In this document: positions 34,698-42,405 of the stretch, in pieces | Layout of the letters: each line of letters starts with the position of its first letter | Position numbering within the stretch: position 1 is the stretch's first letter | Source of the DNA: Rhodothermales bacterium | GTDB lineage: Bacteria > Bacteroidota > Rhodothermia > Rhodothermales > Bin80 | Length of the DNA: 64,000 nt | Assembly (NCBI GenBank): GCA_965262785.1 | Contig: OZ253559.1 | Coordinates: 923,571 to 987,570 of the forward strand | Direction of reading: 5' to 3' | Program-made: the position numbers and the translations under genes | Notes under the pieces: generated by a model | What the model saw: the letters and a program-made list of their open reading frames with translations, nothing else | The model's database searches: none | Told to the model about the DNA's origin: nothing

Positions 34698-34958
34698 ATG
34701 GATCCCAATCTGCACCAAAAGAAGGGCATTGAGCACCTGAACAAGGTTTTGCGGTACGCTCCGATGGTTGCCACGGACGGTAAGGCCACCATACACCTAA
34801 CCCATGAGGACTGGCATGTTGTCGCCGACACGCTCTTCCGAATGAATACGTCGCGGAAGGCGTTGCCGGAGGCAATTGTGGACTACCGCCTAGGGCCGCA
34901 GCACAGGAGCATCGAGCTTGTTACCACTGCGCTGGAAATCACGGTTGAGATGTTCTAG
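34698..34958 (+). CDS. Hypothetical 86-aa protein
   Basis: ATG preceded by an AT-rich stretch (tagagtaaaatatactattcg). Composition looks protein-like, not Arg-rich. No family recognised. The stop overlaps the receptor gene stop convergently. Confidence 0.3.
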   Translation: MDPNLHQKKGIEHLNKVLRYAPMVATDGKATIHLTHEDWHVVADTLFRMNTSRKALPEAIVDYRLGPQHRSIELVTTALEITVEMF

Positions 34959-37234
34959 AACAGGAGCCGGTACGTTAGCCGGATGTCGCGTCCTGGCAGT
35001 GGCACGATATCCTTCAAGAATGAAGTGTGCGGCCGGCCTATCACGTTGGTCAGGTTGCGACCCTGCAGCGAAATCACGTGGCCCGTGTTGCCGGGAAAAA
35101 GCTTGTACTGCGCCGACGCGCCCAAGTCCATGTATCCGTCAGTGGACGTCTCGAACTGCGCAACACGTTTCTGGGCGCTTATAGACTTCATCGAAACGGC
35201 GAGCTTGAGCGCGCCCACCTCGTAGGACAGCTTGCCACCTATCCTCATGGGTGGAATGCGCGGCAGAGGCTCATCGCTGTCTGTCCGATGCGCGCGCGTA
35301 TAGTCACTCCAAATGCGTACGGCCGCATGCTGGTTGCCAATGTGAAACAGCTCACCTTCGACCTCGACCTCAAAGCCAGTGAAGGATGCTTCACCTTGGG
35401 ACACGCGAAACACGGCCTCCCCGTCCTCCCGCTCCTGCGTGTGGCGCAGGTAGATAAAGTCTGAGTACCGGTTCGAAAAGCCCGAAGCACTCGCTTCAAA
35501 CCTTTCGTGGTGCACATGAACGGAGGCATCAAGGCTGAATGCCATTTCAACGTTCAGGTCTGCATTACCAATCTCAAAGGCCTGCGTTGCCACGTGATGG
35601 CCATTGGCATAGAGTTCGCCAGGGTGTGGAATCTTGATGTTCCTGGCTGACCTAAGGGCCATGGTCAGCATTTCAGAGTACTGATAATTGACACCGACGC
35701 CTGCAGAAACGCCCGAGAACGTCCGCTCTCTGCCTATGTCGGGGGTGAGACTGGCACGCTCATAACGCAGGCCGCCTTCCAGACTGAAGGGCCCAGCGTC
35801 CAGTCTTTCCAGCAGGAAGGCGGCGAACCTGTTGCTTTCGGAGCCGGGCATAAACGCCTCGTGGCCAGCGAGCACCAGCATTCGCTGATCCATTTGCAGG
35901 CCCGCCACACCGTGAAAACCACTTGAAAGCGCATGATCAATTTCCAGCCGGCCCTCCACCACATCATTGTCAAAGGTGGTTCCCACGTCACCGTGTTCCA
36001 GCTCATCATGCGCGTAGTCACTAGACCCAAGACGGAAGCGCACGCCATGTAGAAACTCCCGGTCCGCGCGCCAGAGTCCTTCAAAATCGACGGAGACTTT
36101 TGCCATGTCAACACGGACACCTTCTTCTTCCTCCTCCTCTTCGTGTCCATTCCCATCGTCGTGATCGTCGTCGTGGTCTTCATGCCCCGGAAGTCCGTAT
36201 TTGGTGCCATGCAGCGTAACTGCTGCACCAACGAATCCCCAAGATTCAATGTAAGACAGTCCGCCAAAGCCACTATTCAGCGTAACGTTGCTGTTGACGA
36301 TAGTGTTCTCATCGTGATCTTCATGCCCGTCAATACTGCCTGCGGGCACTTTGAATTCTTCCGTGGCCCGGGAGAGGCCCCCAAGGGTCCAGGCAATATT
36401 GCCACGGGTGCCACGAAGCTTCAGGGCACCTGTGCGCCCTAGCGAAACGGAGTTCAGACGACCTGTAAAGACGCCCGTGATGGGGCTGGTGGGCTTCTCG
36501 TTTGGTACGCGACCGTCCAGCACATTGATAACGCCTCCAATCGCGTTACTTCCGTAAAGAAGCGTGGCCGGTCCCCGTATAAACTCAATGCGTTCCGCCA
36601 GTAGTGCCTCGACTGCCGGTGCGTGGTCCGGGCCGATATCTGATGCGTCTGCGTTGCTCAGTCCTTGTTGAAGAATGCTGACGCGGTTGCCGCCAACCCC
36701 GCGAATAACCGGTCGGCTTGACCCCGGACCAAAGTAAGTTGAATTGATGCCAACCTTGCCTTTGAGGCTTTCCCCCAAACTCGCTGCACTGGCATCTACG
36801 AGATCCTGGTAGGACAGTGCGTCGGCGGGACGAACGGCTTCGGAACGCGTCATTTCTATGGGTCCAGCCGATACGACGACCTCGTCAAGACCGACATGCG
36901 CCAGCACCTCGAAGGTTACGTCTGTGGTTTGGCCGCTCTCAACGCTAACTTCGAGGATGCTGCGTCCCCATCGTGGACTCAGCGCCTCCAAGAGATGTGG
37001 TCCGCTCCGAAGATCGTTAAACTCAAAGGCGGCTGCCTCATCGACTGCAGTCAGAATTCCCTTAGCAACAAGGCGAACTTCTGCGTCGATGGCAAGGTCG
37101 CCGCTGGAATTGTATACGACGCCTTGAATTCGCCCGGTGTCCTGGGCCTGGGCGGCTGTCGATGCGGCAAAGAAAAGGCCAACGGCAACTGCGACTCGGC
37201 GGGCGCATTCGTAAAATCGGGTTCTGCTGTGCAT
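34955..37234 (-). CDS. TonB-dependent receptor, ZnuD-like, with His/Asp/Glu-rich loops (copy A)
   Basis: 759 aa. Signal peptide, N-terminal carboxypeptidase-regulatory-like domain, plug (RPVIRGVGGNRVSILQQG), C-terminal TonB-box-C ending ..RDIRLTYRLLF. Loop tracts GHEDHDENT and GHEDHDDDHDDGNGHEEEEEEEG. Confidence 0.9.
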   Translation of the reverse strand: MHSRTRFYECARRVAVAVGLFFAASTAAQAQDTGRIQGVVYNSSGDLAIDAEVRLVAKGILTAVDEAAAFEFNDLRSGPHLLEALSPRWGRSILEVSVESGQTTDVTFEVLAHVGLDEVVVSAGPIEMTRSEAVRPADALSYQDLVDASAASLGESLKGKVGINSTYFGPGSSRPVIRGVGGNRVSILQQGLSNADASDIGPDHAPAVEALLAERIEFIRGPATLLYGSNAIGGVINVLDGRVPNEKPTSPITGVFTGRLNSVSLGRTGALKLRGTRGNIAWTLGGLSRATEEFKVPAGSIDGHEDHDENTIVNSNVTLNSGFGGLSYIESWGFVGAAVTLHGTKYGLPGHEDHDDDHDDGNGHEEEEEEEGVRVDMAKVSVDFEGLWRADREFLHGVRFRLGSSDYAHDELEHGDVGTTFDNDVVEGRLEIDHALSSGFHGVAGLQMDQRMLVLAGHEAFMPGSESNRFAAFLLERLDAGPFSLEGGLRYERASLTPDIGRERTFSGVSAGVGVNYQYSEMLTMALRSARNIKIPHPGELYANGHHVATQAFEIGNADLNVEMAFSLDASVHVHHERFEASASGFSNRYSDFIYLRHTQEREDGEAVFRVSQGEASFTGFEVEVEGELFHIGNQHAAVRIWSDYTRAHRTDSDEPLPRIPPMRIGGKLSYEVGALKLAVSMKSISAQKRVAQFETSTDGYMDLGASAQYKLFPGNTGHVISLQGRNLTNVIGRPHTSFLKDIVPLPGRDIRLTYRLLF

Positions 37235-37270
37235 TAAATCTATCCGGCTGGACCACCCGCCAGAGTAAAT

Positions 37271-37687
37271 CTATGCCGTGCTTAGCGCAAGAATACCCGG
37301 CGGCGGCCATGAATGGGCATGTTCAGAGTTTACGGTATTCGCCGCCGGAGGAGCCCGTATAGGCCGCTGCGTGAGAACCGAGTGTACCGCGGCTATGAGT
37401 GGCGCCGAGGCTATGCGCGTTTCGAAGGCCCAGATTTCGGTATTCCGGAGCCCAATCTGATATTCGTCCACGTCACGTCGGCAAAGCAGACAATCGTCCT
37501 CAGCTAGAAACTCAAAGTCAGGATGCCAGCCACTATGTGTGTGGTCGCAGTCGCCACTGTAGTGCGACGCCAAGCGGAGCCCGTGATGTACGAGGTGAAC
37601 GGAGGGCGAAACTGTGCCTCCCACGAGGAACGCCACGAGAAGAACCGTGGCTCTCTTACGGACTGTATGGACGAAAGCTAGTTGCAT
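37271..37687 (-). CDS. Small membrane-anchored Cys/His-motif protein (copy A, 138 aa)
   Basis: I trimmed the track ORF (to 37804) to the ATG at 37687, which matches its paralog in length. One N-terminal TM segment, then VHLVHHG..LASHYSGDCDHTHSGWHPDFEFLAEDDCLLCRRD. It lies 36 nt upstream of receptor copy A. Conservation with 40620..41039 supports it being coding. Confidence 0.6.
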   Translation of the reverse strand: MQLAFVHTVRKRATVLLVAFLVGGTVSPSVHLVHHGLRLASHYSGDCDHTHSGWHPDFEFLAEDDCLLCRRDVDEYQIGLRNTEIWAFETRIASAPLIAAVHSVLTQRPIRAPPAANTVNSEHAHSWPPPGILALSTA

Positions 37688-38222
37688 TGACTTCTGATCA
37701 AAAGCTTCCAGAATCAAGTAGCAGGAAAATGCCCATACCACAGGCAAACGGAATACAGGGCGCAAGTTCCATGTCTCGGCTGAATCACCTTTCCCATACT
37801 CCATGTGCTTTCACCGAATTGACAGCGGCATGTTTCCGGCGAGGTGGTCGGTTGCAGACCGAAATTCCACATTATGGGGTGAACCTTCGGCAGAGCATGG
37901 GCGTCCACTGATCACTATGAGGGTCGGACTGCTGTGGGCGCCTGGCGCGCGGCCCGACTGAGGACGGAGGTTGCCCTGCGACCTGTCGTGTGAGGGCAGG
38001 CATTGAGCCCGCAAATAGCGTCTTGCGAAATGCATCGACGGAACCAAGGGGCGCAAGGTCACAGCGCAACTGATCAATGGTGACCAGCATGCCGCCGTGT
38101 GGCCGACCATTTGCACAGCTGCATCTCATCAGACTCTGCCCGAGATGATCATTTAGCGATTCCGTGAGCAGCGGTACCCGGGCACGAGGTCTGTTTCCCC
38201 TGGGCTGCAACCCACTGATGTT

Positions 38223-40574
38223 CTAGAACAGAAGTCGGTATGTCAGCCGGATATCCCGCCCCGGCAGTGGAACGAGATCCTTCAGGAATGAAGTATGCGG
38301 CCGGGCAACGGCATTGGTCAGGTTGCGACCCTGCAGGGAAATCACGTGGCCCGTGACGGTTTGGAAGAACCGGTATTGAATGGCCGCGCCCAAGTCTATA
38401 TAACTGTCGGTAGTTTCCTCGAATTGTGCGACACGCTTTTGTGCGCTTACGGACTTGATTGAGGCGCTGAATTCCAACGAGCCGGTGTCAAAGGTCATTT
38501 CGCCACCGACTCTAAGTGGCGGGATCCGCGGCAGCGGCTCGTCATTGATGGACCGCTGCGCGCGCGTATAGTCACTCATGAGGCGCAAGGCCACATGGTG
38601 ATAGCCCTCATGATACAACTCGAATTCGGCTTCTACCTCGAAACCTCTGAAGGAGGCCTCCCCCTGCGACACGCGATACACCGCCGCTCCGTCCTCTGTG
38701 TCCTGCGTGTGACGTAGATAGATGAAGTCTGAGTACTGGTTGGAGAAAACCGAAGCCGTGGCTTCAAACCGATCGTGATGCACATGGGCGGACAAGTCAA
38801 CGCTTAAGGCCGTTTCGACGCCAAGGTCTTCGTCGCCGACCTCGAACGCTTGGGTAGCAACATGGAGGCCGTGGGCATAGAGTTCGCCCGGGTGCGGAAA
38901 TTTGATGCTCCTAGCCACGCCAATCGACACGGACACGTCATCGGTGTACTGATAGTTGACGCCTCCCCCAACAGAAACAGCGGAAAAGGTCCGATTTCTT
39001 CCCTGGTCCGGCGAGATGTTGGCACGCTCGTAGCGCAAGCCGCCTTCCAGTCCAAAGGCGCCCGTGTTCAGCCGCTCAAGCAGGAACAGGGATGCCCGGC
39101 TGGTTGAGGATCCGGGCATGAATGCCTCGTGGCCTGTCAGCGTCAGTGTTCGCCGGTCCAACTGCATGCCTACGACTCCGTTGAATCCAGCGGCAAGGAC
39201 ATGATCCATCTCCAGGCGGCCCTCAATCAAATCATTTTCGAAGGTGGTTCCCACTTCACCGCCTTCTAACTCATCGTGCGCGTAGGCTGAGGAGCCAAGT
39301 CGAAAGCGCAGGCCTCGCAGAAAATCCCCGTGCGCGCGCCAGTGCCCTTCCAGGTCAACGGATATCTGCCCCATGTCGACGCGAACATCTTCATCTTGTT
39401 CTTCGTGACCATGACCCTCATCATCTTCTTCCTCCTCCTCTTCATGTTCGCCTTCTTCTTCGTGGTGCTCCCTGTGCCCCGGAAGCCCGTACTTAGTGCC
39501 GTGCAGCGTAATGGCTGCGCCGATGTAGCCCCAGGACTCAACATAGGACAGTCCTGCAGAGCCTCTGTTCAGCGAGACATTGCTGTTTGCGATTGAATTC
39601 ACAACTTCATCCTGATCATTATCGTTGTCGTGACTATTGCCATTTTCATCGTCGTGGTCCTCTTCCTCTACGATGCTTCCCTTGGGTACTCTGAATTCTT
39701 CCGTTGCCCGTGTCAGGCCGCTAAGGGCCCAGGCAAGGTTACCACGGCCACCGCGCAGCTTGAGCGCACCCGTGCGACCCCGCGAAACGGAGCTGAGACG
39801 CCCTGTAAACGTGCCCGAAATGACGCTGGTGGACTCTTCGCTCGGAACGCGGCCATCGTACAGGTTAACCACGCCACCGATTGCGCTGCTGCCATAGAGC
39901 AGTGTGGCCGGACCGCGAATGATTTCGATGCGATCAGTCAAGAGTGCCTCAACTGCCGGGGCGTGGTCCGGGCTGATGTCCGACACATCCGCAACCGTGA
40001 GGCCCTGCTGCAAGACGCTTACCCTATTGCCCCCTACGCCGCGAATGATCGGCCGACTGGAGCCTGGCCCGAAATAGGTAGCTGTGATTCCGACCTTATT
40101 TCTTAGGGTTTCGCCCAAGCTCCCCTCGCTGGCCTCAACCAGGTCCTGATGCGACAGTGCGTCGGCAGGTTGAACGGCACCTGAACGCGTCACCGCCACC
40201 GGTCCTGCTGACACGACGACTTCTTCCAGATCGACATGCACTACGACTTCAAGGGTGACCTCACTGGTCTGACCGTCTTTGACGGATACCTCCAGAATGC
40301 CACGCCCCCATCGTGGGCTGACTGCCTCCAGGATGTGCGCTCCATCAGGCAGATAGCTAAAAGAAAAGCTGGCTTCTTCGTCCACTTTGGTTAGGAGTCC
40401 CATCCCTACGACGCGGACCTCCGCATCCAGGGCCAGGTCACCGGCGGTGTTGTAGACAATGCCCTGAATATGCCCACCTTTCTGAGCCCAAGCGGTATTG
40501 GTACAGGCAGCGATTAGCGGAATGGCAAGCGCGACGCAAAAAAGTGCGCCGGTATATTGATTTTTGCAAAGCAT
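38223..40574 (-). CDS. TonB-dependent receptor, ZnuD-like, with expanded His/Asp/Glu-rich loops (copy B)
   Basis: 783 aa. Collinear paralog of 34955..37234. Loop tracts EEEDHDDENGNSHDNDNDQDE and GHREHHEEEGEHEEEEEEDDEGHGHEEQDED. Same ending RDIRLTYRLLF. Confidence 0.9.
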   Translation of the reverse strand: MLCKNQYTGALFCVALAIPLIAACTNTAWAQKGGHIQGIVYNTAGDLALDAEVRVVGMGLLTKVDEEASFSFSYLPDGAHILEAVSPRWGRGILEVSVKDGQTSEVTLEVVVHVDLEEVVVSAGPVAVTRSGAVQPADALSHQDLVEASEGSLGETLRNKVGITATYFGPGSSRPIIRGVGGNRVSVLQQGLTVADVSDISPDHAPAVEALLTDRIEIIRGPATLLYGSSAIGGVVNLYDGRVPSEESTSVISGTFTGRLSSVSRGRTGALKLRGGRGNLAWALSGLTRATEEFRVPKGSIVEEEDHDDENGNSHDNDNDQDEVVNSIANSNVSLNRGSAGLSYVESWGYIGAAITLHGTKYGLPGHREHHEEEGEHEEEEEEDDEGHGHEEQDEDVRVDMGQISVDLEGHWRAHGDFLRGLRFRLGSSAYAHDELEGGEVGTTFENDLIEGRLEMDHVLAAGFNGVVGMQLDRRTLTLTGHEAFMPGSSTSRASLFLLERLNTGAFGLEGGLRYERANISPDQGRNRTFSAVSVGGGVNYQYTDDVSVSIGVARSIKFPHPGELYAHGLHVATQAFEVGDEDLGVETALSVDLSAHVHHDRFEATASVFSNQYSDFIYLRHTQDTEDGAAVYRVSQGEASFRGFEVEAEFELYHEGYHHVALRLMSDYTRAQRSINDEPLPRIPPLRVGGEMTFDTGSLEFSASIKSVSAQKRVAQFEETTDSYIDLGAAIQYRFFQTVTGHVISLQGRNLTNAVARPHTSFLKDLVPLPGRDIRLTYRLLF

Positions 40575-40619
40575 GATGTCTGTCTGTCTGCGCCGCTGCC
40601 AGAGGACATCAGTACTGCG

Positions 40620-41039
40620 CTAAGCGTACAGCAAAGTAGCGGGCGCCCCGGCGGCGGCCGTGAATTGGAGTCTCACTGTGTGTGCTGACATGACTACCGG
40701 GGGGCCGCGAATAGACTTCGGCGAATGACGGACGAGCGCCACTGTGCCGGCCGGCGCCTTTGAAGCGCCTGCTTCGCCATGGAAGACCGCTGTTGACGCC
40801 AGCATAACCTGTGAAACGTCCAGGTCGCGCTGGCAGAGAAGGCAGTCTTCCTCGTCTAGAAACTCAAAGTCCGGATGCCAACCACCGTGCGTGTGGTCGC
40901 AGTCGAGACCATAATGCGCCGCAAGTTGATAACCGTGGTGGACGCGGTGCACGACCGGAAGCACGGTGCCGCCCAGCAGAAACGTCACCAGAAGGACGGC
41001 CGCACTCCTACAGACGGTATGGGTGTTTCCCAGACGCAC
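40620..41039 (-). CDS. Small membrane-anchored Cys/His-motif protein (copy B, 139 aa)
   Basis: GTG start at 41037-41039. TM segment AAVLLVTFLLGGTV, then VHRVHHGYQLAAHYGLDCDHTHGGWHPDFEFLDEEDCLLCQRD. It lies 45 nt upstream of receptor copy B. Confidence 0.6.
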   Translation of the reverse strand: MRLGNTHTVCRSAAVLLVTFLLGGTVLPVVHRVHHGYQLAAHYGLDCDHTHGGWHPDFEFLDEEDCLLCQRDLDVSQVMLASTAVFHGEAGASKAPAGTVALVRHSPKSIRGPPVVMSAHTVRLQFTAAAGAPATLLYA

Positions 41040-41044
41040 GAATT

Positions 41045-41070
41045 TCAGATAAGGAGCTCAGATAAGGAGC
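41045..41070. repeat. Perfect 13-bp tandem direct repeat (tcagataaggagc x2)
   Basis: Read directly: 41045..41057 equals 41058..41070. It lies 6 nt upstream (minus-strand sense) of the GTG start of the small Cys/His protein. A GGATCC-gat-GGATCC pair follows at 41083..41097. Confidence 0.9.
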
Positions 41071-41193
41071 AACAAGGCATGCGGATCCGATGGATCCCAC
41101 TTGAAAAGTATTACGAATCGCATGAGACAGGTTCCGATTCGCTAGTGAAATTCTTCCGCGTGTCGAATAACTTACGAAGACAATCGACACGGA

Positions 41194-42405
41194 ATGGACC
41201 CAGCGATCTTACTGGTTGGCACGCTAGACACCAAGGGGCGTGAGTTTGCCTTTGCACGCGAGCTGATAAATGCGCGTGGGATTCCCACGACCCTGATGGA
41301 TGCCGGTGTGCTCGGCGCGCCCGGCGCGGAGCCGGACATCGGCGCGGAGGCCGTCGCCCGCTCGGGTGGAGGGAGCCTTGAGGTCCTCAGGGCAGGTGGC
41401 GACCGTGGCGCAGCGCTGGATGTCATGACACGCGGCGCGTGTGCGCTGGCCGAAGAGCTGTACGGCCAACGGCGGCTCGCCGGGGTCCTGGGACTTGGAG
41501 GAAGCGGGGGCACGGCGATTGCTACCGCAGTCATGCGCGCGTTGCCGGTGGGCGTGCCCAAGGTCATGCTTTCCACCCTGGCATCCGGCGATGTGGGGCC
41601 GTATGTGGGGGCAATTGATATCGCGATGATGCATTCGGTGGTGGACATCGCGGGTCTGAACAGGATTTCGCGACCCATAATCGCCAATGCGGTGGGGGCG
41701 GTCTGCGGAATGGTGGAGCAGGATGTGCCAGCGAGCATGGACAAGCCGCTGATAGCGGCGACGATGTTTGGCGTCACGACGCCATGCGTGATGCGCCTGC
41801 AGCAGGCGATGGCGGAGGAAGGCTACGAGCTTGTCGTTTTCCACGCGACCGGCACCGGCGGACGTGCCATGGAAGCCCTGATCGATAGCGGGTTCTTCGT
41901 CGCGGTGGCGGACGTCACGACCACTGAATGGTGCGATGAAGTGGTGGGCGGCGTGCTGAGTGCGGGCCCGGATCGTTTGGGGGCCGCCGCGAGGAGCGGC
42001 ATCCCCCAGGTAGTGTCGTGTGGAGCGCTTGATATGGTGAACTTCCGCGGGCCGGACACCGTGCCAGTGCAGTTTCAGGCGCGCAACCTGTTCAAGCACA
42101 ACGCCAACGTGACGCTCATGCGCACGAGTCCGGCGGAGTGCCAGGTGATAGGAGAGCGCATTGCCCGGCAGATCAGCCGCGCAAAAGGGCCGGTCAAGCT
42201 TCTGCTTCCGCTACAGGGCGTGAGCGCAATTGACAAGGAGGGCAAGGCGTTTCATGACCCGGCGGCCGATGCGGCGCTCTTTGGTGCGCTGCGTAAGAAT
42301 GTGGCGGCGAGCGTGGAAGTGGTGGCGCTCGACCTTCACATCAACGATGAGGCCTTTGCGCTTTCCCTTGCGGAACACCTATTGGCACTCTTGGCCGCAA
42401 CCTGA
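41194..42405 (+). CDS. UPF0261 / Tm-1-like ATP-binding domain protein
   Basis: 403 aa. ILLVGTLDTKGREFAF.., MLSTLASGDV, ATMFGVTTPCV, VFHATGTGGRAMEAL and GIPQVVSCGALDMVNF are the UPF0261 family blocks as I remember them. Confidence 0.8.
   Translation: MDPAILLVGTLDTKGREFAFARELINARGIPTTLMDAGVLGAPGAEPDIGAEAVARSGGGSLEVLRAGGDRGAALDVMTRGACALAEELYGQRRLAGVLGLGGSGGTAIATAVMRALPVGVPKVMLSTLASGDVGPYVGAIDIAMMHSVVDIAGLNRISRPIIANAVGAVCGMVEQDVPASMDKPLIAATMFGVTTPCVMRLQQAMAEEGYELVVFHATGTGGRAMEALIDSGFFVAVADVTTTEWCDEVVGGVLSAGPDRLGAAARSGIPQVVSCGALDMVNFRGPDTVPVQFQARNLFKHNANVTLMRTSPAECQVIGERIARQISRAKGPVKLLLPLQGVSAIDKEGKAFHDPAADAALFGALRKNVAASVEVVALDLHINDEAFALSLAEHLLALLAAT

Follow-up and report, generated by a model that had tools for sequence, protein, structure and literature searches.

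What do two small, paralogous open reading frames (ORFs) do when each stands directly in front of a gene for a TonB-dependent receptor? They lie on the minus strand of a 64,000-nucleotide (nt) stretch of contig OZ253559.1 (assembly GCA_965262785.1, positions 923,571 to 987,570), hereafter the window, which belongs to a Rhodothermales metagenome-assembled genome (MAG; Bacteroidota; 4.25 Mb, one contig). Together with the receptor genes they form two tandem two-gene modules. A first reading of the letters, hereafter the original prediction, had taken their products for periplasmic metal hand-off, sensor or chaperone elements. We propose instead that each small ORF probably belongs to the CruR/CutF (DUF2946) superfamily of metal-sensing ribosome-arrest leaders and, acting in cis, would control the ZnuD-like receptor gene behind it. 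This proposal draws on homology, on an invariant layout, on the position before the receptor, on a covarying RNA hairpin and on the pattern of selection.

Two prototypes frame the question. CruR (Bp2923) of Bordetella pertussis, a DUF2946 (PF11162) protein, is encoded by an upstream ORF whose nascent product senses copper via a CXXC motif (Roy et al. 2022; PMC9426467). Copper relieves the arrest of CruR at a C-terminal RAPP motif, which leads to Rho-dependent termination before the receptor gene bfrG; mutations in RAPP abolish bfrG expression, the CXXC–RAPP spacing of 45 residues (± 1–2) is conserved and functionally important, the protein is poorly structured and barely detectable, and the Rho utilization (rut) site of cruR was mapped to a region richer in C than in G (PMC9426467). 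The arrest has been toeprinted with the two proline codons in the P and A sites (PMC12992588). The Rhodobacter protein CutF undergoes cotranslational export; its stall is lengthened by copper, and the longer stall melts a stem-loop that hides the cutO ribosome-binding site (PMC9973294). A survey counted 5,334 CutF-like proteins with assorted Cys/His sites, many of them in Bacteroidota and commonly with TonB-type neighbours (PMC9973294; bioRxiv 10.1101/2025.02.05.636593). More generally, RGPP and RAPP arrest ribosomes in many sequence contexts, RGPP being the strongest; both are avoided in proteomes, and they are enriched near the C-terminus of small exported proteins encoded upstream of TonB-related genes, among others (PMC12992588).

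Both window ORFs lie where the original prediction had placed them, on the minus strand and with nearly equal lengths, and the consensus that it quoted is correct: the two proteins are 48% identical (BLASTP, E 2e-42). It had further ascribed their conserved block to purifying selection rather than to antisense noise, a view borne out by a split comparison of the two paralogues by the Nei-Gojobori method. The ratio of non-synonymous to synonymous substitution rates (dN/dS) is 0.155 over residues 2–75 and 0.108 over residues 12–75, with a saturated dS of about 1.4–1.7, versus 0.92, close to neutrality, over linker residues 76–110. Orthologs from this genome (G000) and G001 differ by too few changes for their dN/dS to inform. 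Judged by substitution pattern, the succession of a conserved core and a free stretch is real and not antisense noise. The C-terminal halves, said to have diverged almost completely, are indeed free over residues 76–110; the claim does not extend to the IR[G/A]PP motif at residues 110–114 (RGPP in copy 1, RAPP in copy 2), nor to the nucleotide motif GCCGCCGCCGGG, which is common to both tails in different reading frames. As anticipated, each protein has a single N-terminal hydrophobic segment (residues ~12–30), preceded by arginine residues. With a 12-sequence alignment, AlphaFold2 returned a low mean confidence (predicted local distance difference test, pLDDT, of 58.8) and was confident only for the transmembrane (TM) helix, at residues 6–46 (pLDDT 86–93), the values being below 50 elsewhere; beyond this helix the leader is predicted to be disordered.

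The start column holds ATG or GTG in all seven close sequences compared, which favours starts at 41039 and 37687 over a longer copy 2 ORF reaching 37804, whose upstream extension is poorly conserved. Note that leader starts are called inconsistently in public records (P0003, P0005 and P0007, with versions of 122, 177 and 113 amino acids (aa)); against the conserved GTG/ATG column, this makes database lengths unreliable for the leader family.

Homologues exist outside the genome. Six-frame searches found matches in 33 of 61 related genomes at E ≤ 1, its own counted, and an exhaustive search among 1.84 billion proteins yielded 16 representatives at E ≤ 1e-3; at the protein level the family spans an order as well as metagenomes; a related-locus search with the close subclade returned four Rhodothermales MAG loci only. 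Word-indexed protein searches were too insensitive (3, 11 and 4 matches). In the family alignment, A1, which has 24 members, the residues G23, H31, H35, C66, R111, P113 and P114 are invariant. They sit within a hydrophobic segment with GG, the motifs P28-x2-H31-R-x-H-H35-G, C47-D-H49 and C66-L-L-C69 (C69 being kept in at least 90% of the 24 sequences) and the RxPP motif. The CxxC-to-RxPP spacing is 41 residues (40–41) across the core family and 42–44 in the neighbouring DUF2946-annotated Rhodothermales branch; as aligned, the linker is fixed in length and free in sequence. RxPP lies 2–4 residues from the end in most members, and the subclade of the window runs on for 24–28 residues, namely 25 in copy 1, where the motif is 25 codons ahead of the stop and 123 nt ahead of the receptor ATG, and 24 in copy 2, where the corresponding distances are 24 codons and 111 nt. 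In nearly all relatives' loci, a gene of the size expected for a TonB-dependent receptor follows on the same strand: a receptor of 740–830 aa comes directly after the leader or after one or two small genes for His-rich lipoproteins. In the window, the leader–receptor gap is 45 nt for copy 1 and 36 nt for copy 2, again on the same strand.

How do these proteins relate to DUF2946, which the original prediction had found loosely reminiscent? Pfam and NCBIfam scans gave no useful match for either window protein (a lone Pellino RING hit, E 0.16, is noise), and a profile search of PDB sequences returned only glutaredoxin CxxC noise (E 0.27). The connection runs through relatives. Five of the 24 family members match PF11162 weakly (best E 0.004), and small ORFs of the same layout in related genomes match it through the last profile position. 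One of them, in genome G044, passes the gathering score with 26.5 bits; its protein and one relative (P0026, P0027) bear the NCBI name 'DUF2946 family protein' and carry PF11162.14. The hidden Markov model of A1 in turn scores the G044 ORF at 49.4 bits (E 3e-11 at Z = 1e6), and hhalign aligns A1 with the DUF2946-named Rhodothermales clade (P0026–29) at a probability of 97.2% (E 3.2e-11) over 118 columns, from the TM segment through CxxC to RGPP. By profile comparison, the leaders are thus remote homologues of DUF2946, not members of the Pfam family: the resemblance stands as distant kinship, and the direct match to PF11162 is absent.

The RNA adds a second layer. In the long-tailed subclade to which the window copies belong, the 111–123 nt between the stall codons and the receptor ATG are conserved as nucleotides, and RNAalifold, applied to seven sequences, folds them into a 13-bp stem. 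Its 5′ arm, G(C/U)(C/U)GC(C/U)GC(C/U)GGG, lies within the ORF tail and starts 38, 39 or 40 nt past the PP codons (38–39 in the window copies); its 3′ arm, CUCUGG(C)AGCGGC, is intergenic; the leader stop codon always falls within the loop. With nine sequences, 93.2% of the hairpin cells are paired, versus 35–59% with slid partners; compensatory changes occur at five pairs, and none of 500 shuffles reaches the covariation score, the sequences being few and related and the alignment fitted to the model. A covariance model built on seven sequences recovers metagenome contigs outside its build (L056, 59.5 bits; L057, from TARA, 74.1 bits), as well as a weak match in a second copy in G010 (17.5 bits). 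It finds nothing in the short-tailed relatives, which makes the hairpin specific to the long-tailed subclade, and Rfam has no match within 37100–41300. Homologues read the 5′ arm in codon phases 1, 2 and 3, giving AAAG in copy 1, SCCWD in L057 and WPPPG in copy 2 (SPLLG in G013), respectively. This indicates that the tail is selected as RNA and not as peptide, as would be expected if ribosomes normally wait at RxPP.

Further pairings are conceivable in the same region, whose segments we number 1 (the RxPP codons plus 15 nt), 2 and 3 (the 5′ and 3′ arms) and 4 (the region before the receptor ATG). The 1:2 pairing has a folding free energy (dG) of −20 to −30 kcal/mol in eight of nine sequences, and in a 3:4 pairing the CUCUGG of the 3′ arm is complementary to a conserved GCCGGAG(G)A just before the receptor ATG. 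In addition, a bubble of C>G skew (+0.14 to +0.22) extends from −80 to +20 nt around the PP codons in 86–95% of 22 members; it resembles a rut site as in cruR and could alternatively reflect the amino-acid composition of the linker. The genome encodes a full-length Rho (rho at 488233–489978); a second, shorter Rho-like frame (G000:C1:4185155–4186231, minus strand, 376 aa) scores 414 bits, below the TIGR00767 cut-off.

Table 1. Features of the two leader–receptor modules, in window coordinates.
Feature	Copy	Position	Strand	Details
Small ORF (candidate leader)	1	40620..41039	minus	139 aa, GTG start
TM segment	1	40950-41006	minus	residues 12-30
His/Cys block (putative sensor)	1	40833-40949	minus	residues 31-69
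Free-sequence linker, 41 residues	1	40710-40832	minus	residues 70-110
Predicted ribosome-arrest site	1	40698..40709	minus	R-G-P-P, codons CGC GGC CCC CCG
C>G skew bubble	1	~40680-40780
Conserved RNA hairpin	1	40592..40658	minus
Hairpin 5′ arm	1	40658-40646		GCCGCCGCCGGGG; within ORF tail, read as AAAG
Stop codon of small ORF	1	40622-40620		inside hairpin loop
Hairpin 3′ arm	1	40604-40592		CUCUGGCAGCGGC; intergenic
ZnuD-like TonB-dependent receptor 1	1	38223..40574	minus	783 aa, two His/Asp/Glu-rich loops
Small ORF (candidate leader)	2	37271..37687	minus	138 aa, ATG start (GTG in same-genus genome)
TM segment	2	37598-37654	minus
His/Cys block	2	37481-37597	minus
Linker	2	37358-37480	minus
Predicted ribosome-arrest site	2	37346..37357	minus	R-A-P-P, codons CGG GCU CCU CCG
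C>G skew bubble	2	~37330-37430
Conserved RNA hairpin	2	37252..37307	minus
Hairpin 5′ arm	2	37307-37295		GCCGCCGCCGGGU; read as WPPPG, frame differs from copy 1
Stop codon of small ORF	2	37273-37271		inside hairpin loop
Hairpin 3′ arm	2	37265-37252
ZnuD-like TonB-dependent receptor 2	2	34955..37234	minus	759 aa, followed by thyA

If the small ORFs are arrest leaders, the ribosome would stall with Pro113 in the P site and Pro114 in the A site. The CxxC would then lie 44–47 residues from the peptidyl-transferase centre, just out of the exit tunnel, while HxxxH and CxH, beside the membrane segment, would be further out and may by then have crossed the translocon. By binding to this Cys2His2-like cluster, metal would alter the force on the nascent chain, or its conformation, and change the lifetime of the arrest. 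Two directions of the switch can be envisaged. With CruR-like logic, low metal would give a lasting stall and an active receptor gene, and metal would release the ribosome and turn the receptor off. With CutF-like logic, metal would prolong the stall and turn the receptor off, with the same physiology and in a manner that would suit the terminator-like hairpins of short-tailed relatives. We lean slightly towards the CruR-like direction, since the receptor gene serves uptake and no prototype other than CruR is linked to a receptor. As for the read-out, a stalled ribosome covering segment 1, the C-rich stall codons, could let the 2:3 hairpin form, so that the purine-rich stretch preceding the receptor ATG stays accessible, as in a four-segment switch of the ermC type; when no ribosome is stalled there, the 1:2 and 3:4 pairings could form. 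A second read-out, possibly operating alongside, would be the loading of Rho onto the C>G-rich RNA that surrounds the stall site.

Which metal might be sensed? The two receptors, which are 65% identical, both contain long His/Asp/Glu tracts, and their best NCBIfam match is ZnuD (NF038289; 338 and 314 bits), the copper receptor model giving only 59 and 51 bits. ZnuD 4RDR (E 1e-51) is their only PDB sequence match at E ≤ 1e-10. The original prediction had mentioned copper TonB receptors as neighbours of DUF2946-type proteins in proteobacteria; the partners here are ZnuD-like and not of the copper OprC type. Among relatives, the receptors nearest to those of the window also resemble ZnuD and the remainder are hemin/ZnuD-like, with no OprC-type receptor among those tested. 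Given the receptor type and the extra histidines of the leader, zinc is our best guess, modestly favoured; copper is possible. At E ≤ 1e-5 the genome contains one FUR-family gene (G000:C1:274879–275238, minus strand, locus L058), which scores better as Fur (93 bits) than as Zur (35 bits) in NCBIfam. No dedicated Zur is therefore recognisable in the genome, and the leader could be a main route of zinc regulation. A search upstream of the leaders for a shared operator or Zur box brought out only a recurring heptamer, AATTCGT(G), found 5′ of or at leader starts in five genomes (window ~41040–41050; L036, L037, L038, L046), which may be chance.

Several observations weigh against this interpretation. 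The DUF2946 link is transitive: neither window protein matches PF11162 (gathering score 23.7 bits) at E ≤ 1, and a six-frame search of the genome with this profile finds nothing at either leader locus. Geometry differs from that of CruR, with a stall motif 24–25 residues from the C-terminus versus 3, a CxxC–RxPP spacing of 41 versus the 45 reported for DUF2946, and an intergenic gap of 36 or 45 nt versus 162 nt. The filter of the CutF-like survey (fewer than 150 aa, N-terminal signal, Cys/His site, PP within the last 15 residues; PMC9973294) would retain the short-tailed relatives; the window leaders comply in length, signal and Cys/His site and fall outside it because their PP is 25 and 24 residues from the C-terminus. 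On the RNA side, the folding energy of the hairpin is unexceptional for this G+C content (z-scores of −0.72 and −1.66), and for the 1:2 and 3:4 alternatives the evidence is complementarity only. The 1:2 duplex reaches a dG of just −14 in L057 (z +1.1), with z-scores ranging overall from +1.1 to −4.4; the 3:4 helix has 80.6% of its cells paired, versus 27–42% when slid, with zero compensatory changes, and is weak in the window copies (dG of −7.4 and −10.5, z near 0). Finally, the receptors score below the 950-bit cut-off of the ZnuD model, and it is solely from receptor similarity that zinc is deduced.

The best-surviving alternative, unlikely as a whole in our estimate, is a variant of the reading above and compatible with its class assignment: the leaders would sense copper or another metal, and do so with CutF-like logic, the metal prolonging the stall and turning the receptor off, for example via the downstream hairpin or, in relatives, a terminator. 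In favour of copper, CxxC motifs are classical Cu(I) sites, and copper is the metal sensed by the two family members that have been characterised (PMC9426467, PMC9973294). Many short-tailed relatives have G+C-rich hairpins that start 13–21 nt past the PP codons, several of them followed by T runs in the manner of intrinsic terminators, which suggests a transcription-attenuation version of the same leader; such a hairpin would be disrupted by a ribosome at the stop codon and not by one stalled at RGPP. Examples are found at L014 (10-bp stem, z −3.8), L011 (z −2.9), L028 (z −3.2), L009 and L008. In the window, consensus scans found no coding-strand promoter and no terminator between leader and receptor. 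As regards copper, the receptors are far closer to ZnuD than to the copper receptor model (338 versus 59 bits for receptor 1), the relatives tested lack OprC-type receptors, and the extra invariant histidines make up a Cys2His2-like set typical of zinc sites; as regards the logic, metal relieves the stall in CruR, the only receptor-linked prototype.

A less probable alternative, to which we give little credence, retains the view of the original prediction: the ORFs would encode stable periplasmic proteins that are anchored in the inner membrane and bind metal, acting as chaperone, hand-off partner or sensor for the receptor, and RxPP and the hairpin would be incidental. A His/Cys cluster under strong purifying selection and immediately behind a membrane segment would fit such a protein, as would the constant co-occurrence with receptors and the extra His-rich lipoproteins in some relatives' operons, which associate periplasmic metal handling with these loci. 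What is conserved, however, is the CxxC, the 41-residue spacer, RGPP/RAPP and the hairpin, the rest being predicted disordered and evolving neutrally: about half of the protein is neutral in sequence yet fixed in length, no confident fold is predicted past the TM helix, and the tail is read in three frames. Moreover, RGPP is invariant here, although it ranks with the motifs that bacterial proteomes avoid most unless they serve arrest (PMC12992588), and the homologous prototypes CruR and CutF act in cis only and are undetectable as mature proteins (PMC9426467, PMC9973294), which argues against a stable periplasmic hand-off protein or chaperone. That the ORFs are chance or antisense frames, with only the hairpin or a promoter region being functional, is a negligible prospect: G+C-rich genomes do contain many spurious ORFs and the tail is conserved as RNA, but the low dN/dS with saturated dS over residues 2–75 has already refuted it, and homologues across an order and in metagenomes, a conserved start column, and invariant His, Cys, Arg and Pro residues that persist amid free sequence all contradict it.

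Some further features of these loci and of the genome deserve mention. The gene order leader–receptor–thyA seen at window copy 2 recurs in several relatives. At L049, L050 and L052 (genomes G037, G044 and G056), the one or two genes between leader and receptor encode small His/Asp/Glu-rich lipoproteins with the motifs DDDHEEH and HGDH[AF]DF; these have no NCBIfam match and, in Pfam, only a sub-threshold one to T2SS-T3SS_pil_N (E 4e-4); they are possible metal-binding partners in the periplasm or at the surface. At L039, L040, L044 and L054 (G014, G011, G048 and G007), a conserved lipoprotein of 185–218 aa is encoded 3′ of the receptor; it reads CDSTEPD ... VVLSHFDEEPKNGTD.SDETD and matches neither Pfam nor NCBIfam. 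Just 5′ of the copy 1 GTG, a 13-nt tandem repeat (window 41045–41070) carries GCTCCTTATCTGA twice on the minus strand; since the repeat is single in the same-genus genome, the duplication is recent. In the long ORFs of the genome, RGPP occurs 8 times and RAPP 10 times, versus 21 for AGPP and 27 for AAPP, which is no striking depletion. Outside the window, a 145-codon frame (G000:C1:2145327–2145761, plus strand) has an N-terminal membrane segment and a helical LTxxQ/Spy-CpxP-like region and ends in ...RRRGPPPQP, which puts RGPP four residues before the C-terminus; this frame could encode one more arrest-type leader, or the motif could be there by chance. Two other roles considered for the window ORFs were rejected: an anti-sigma or FecR-like regulator, since no gene for an extracytoplasmic function (ECF) sigma factor lies nearby and no such domain is present, and a precursor of a ribosomally synthesized and post-translationally modified peptide (RiPP) or of a metallophore, since the protein has 139 aa with a membrane segment and the window holds no maturation genes.

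Arrest leaders of the CruR/CutF type before a TonB-dependent receptor are a known kind, and many such leaders had been anticipated by the literature in Gram-negative phyla. The present family differs in having no match in Pfam, a spacer of 41 residues and an additional HxxxH/CxH set; new as well are the ZnuD-like partner and, in the subclade of the window, an internal stall site that precedes a tail indifferent to reading frame and a covarying hairpin with the stop codon in its loop. To our knowledge, post-transcriptional sensing of transition metals by nascent leaders has been shown experimentally only for copper, by CruR and CutF. A leader family that is tied to ZnuD-like receptors and has additional invariant histidines offers a concrete candidate for such control by zinc. 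In its most specific form, which is a tentative conjecture that we consider doubtful as a whole, the window would encode natural zinc-responsive arrest peptides, in which a site made of H31, H35, C66 and C69 (with or without C47 and H49), located 41 residues from RGPP, would flip an ermC-like switch gating a ZnuD-type receptor; zinc availability would be reported by cotranslational folding or pulling, in a genome with no recognisable Zur. In laboratory constructs, a zinc finger that folds upon binding zinc close to the tunnel exit can relieve SecM arrest. If true, the zinc reading would extend nascent-chain metal sensing from copper to zinc and provide the natural counterpart of this zinc finger–arrest peptide assay. 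The long-tailed form lends itself to dissection, as stall site, spacer, frame-tolerant tail and hairpin are each separately mutable. For annotation, genes of this family, which Pfam and NCBIfam miss and whose starts are often misplaced, are better labelled as regulatory leaders than as hypothetical membrane proteins.

Among the prototypes, the window leaders can be set beside CruR first. Like it, they are the small first gene of a TonB-dependent receptor operon and have an N-terminal export or membrane segment (N-in/C-out), an invariant CxxC, a free spacer of fixed length, a RAPP-type motif, a predicted poorly structured chain and a C>G-rich stretch near the 3′ end of the leader. They differ in having no Pfam match, a spacer of 41 instead of 45 residues, an invariant HxxxH and CxH next to the membrane segment, RGPP as the stall motif of copy 1 and a stall motif 24–25 codons before the stop instead of 3. 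Their short intergenic gap holds a covarying hairpin spanning the stop codon, and the receptor is ZnuD-like, not of the CrtA/BfrG type, with no PepSY_TM gene; the host is a member of the Rhodothermales (Bacteroidota), not a proteobacterium. The CruR authors also note that neither copper nor zinc has a known riboswitch (PMC9426467).

With CutF of Rhodobacter capsulatus, the window leaders would share the principle of an exported nascent chain acting as metal sensor, a Cys/His site, a C-terminal proline stall motif and a downstream mRNA stem-loop. In contrast, CutF has a CxxxC and induces a multicopper oxidase, and the window hairpin starts so far past the stall codons (38–39 nt) that it lies beyond the reach of the stalled ribosome. 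The receptors resemble ZnuD of Neisseria meningitidis (4RDR) in their His/Asp/Glu-rich extracellular loop tracts, and differ from it by an N-terminal carboxypeptidase-regulatory-like domain typical of Bacteroidota. Finally, attenuators of the ermC/cat type and SecM–secA offer the same general plan, in which a stalling leader ORF precedes alternative pairings that expose or hide the next initiation region, and the RxPP core of the window leaders resembles the RAGP of SecM and the RAPP of ApdA/ApdP. There is no homology with ermC/cat or SecM, and only the 2:3 hairpin of the window leaders has covariation support; their ligand would be a metal bound outside the tunnel, as opposed to an antibiotic within it or to the pulling force of secretion.

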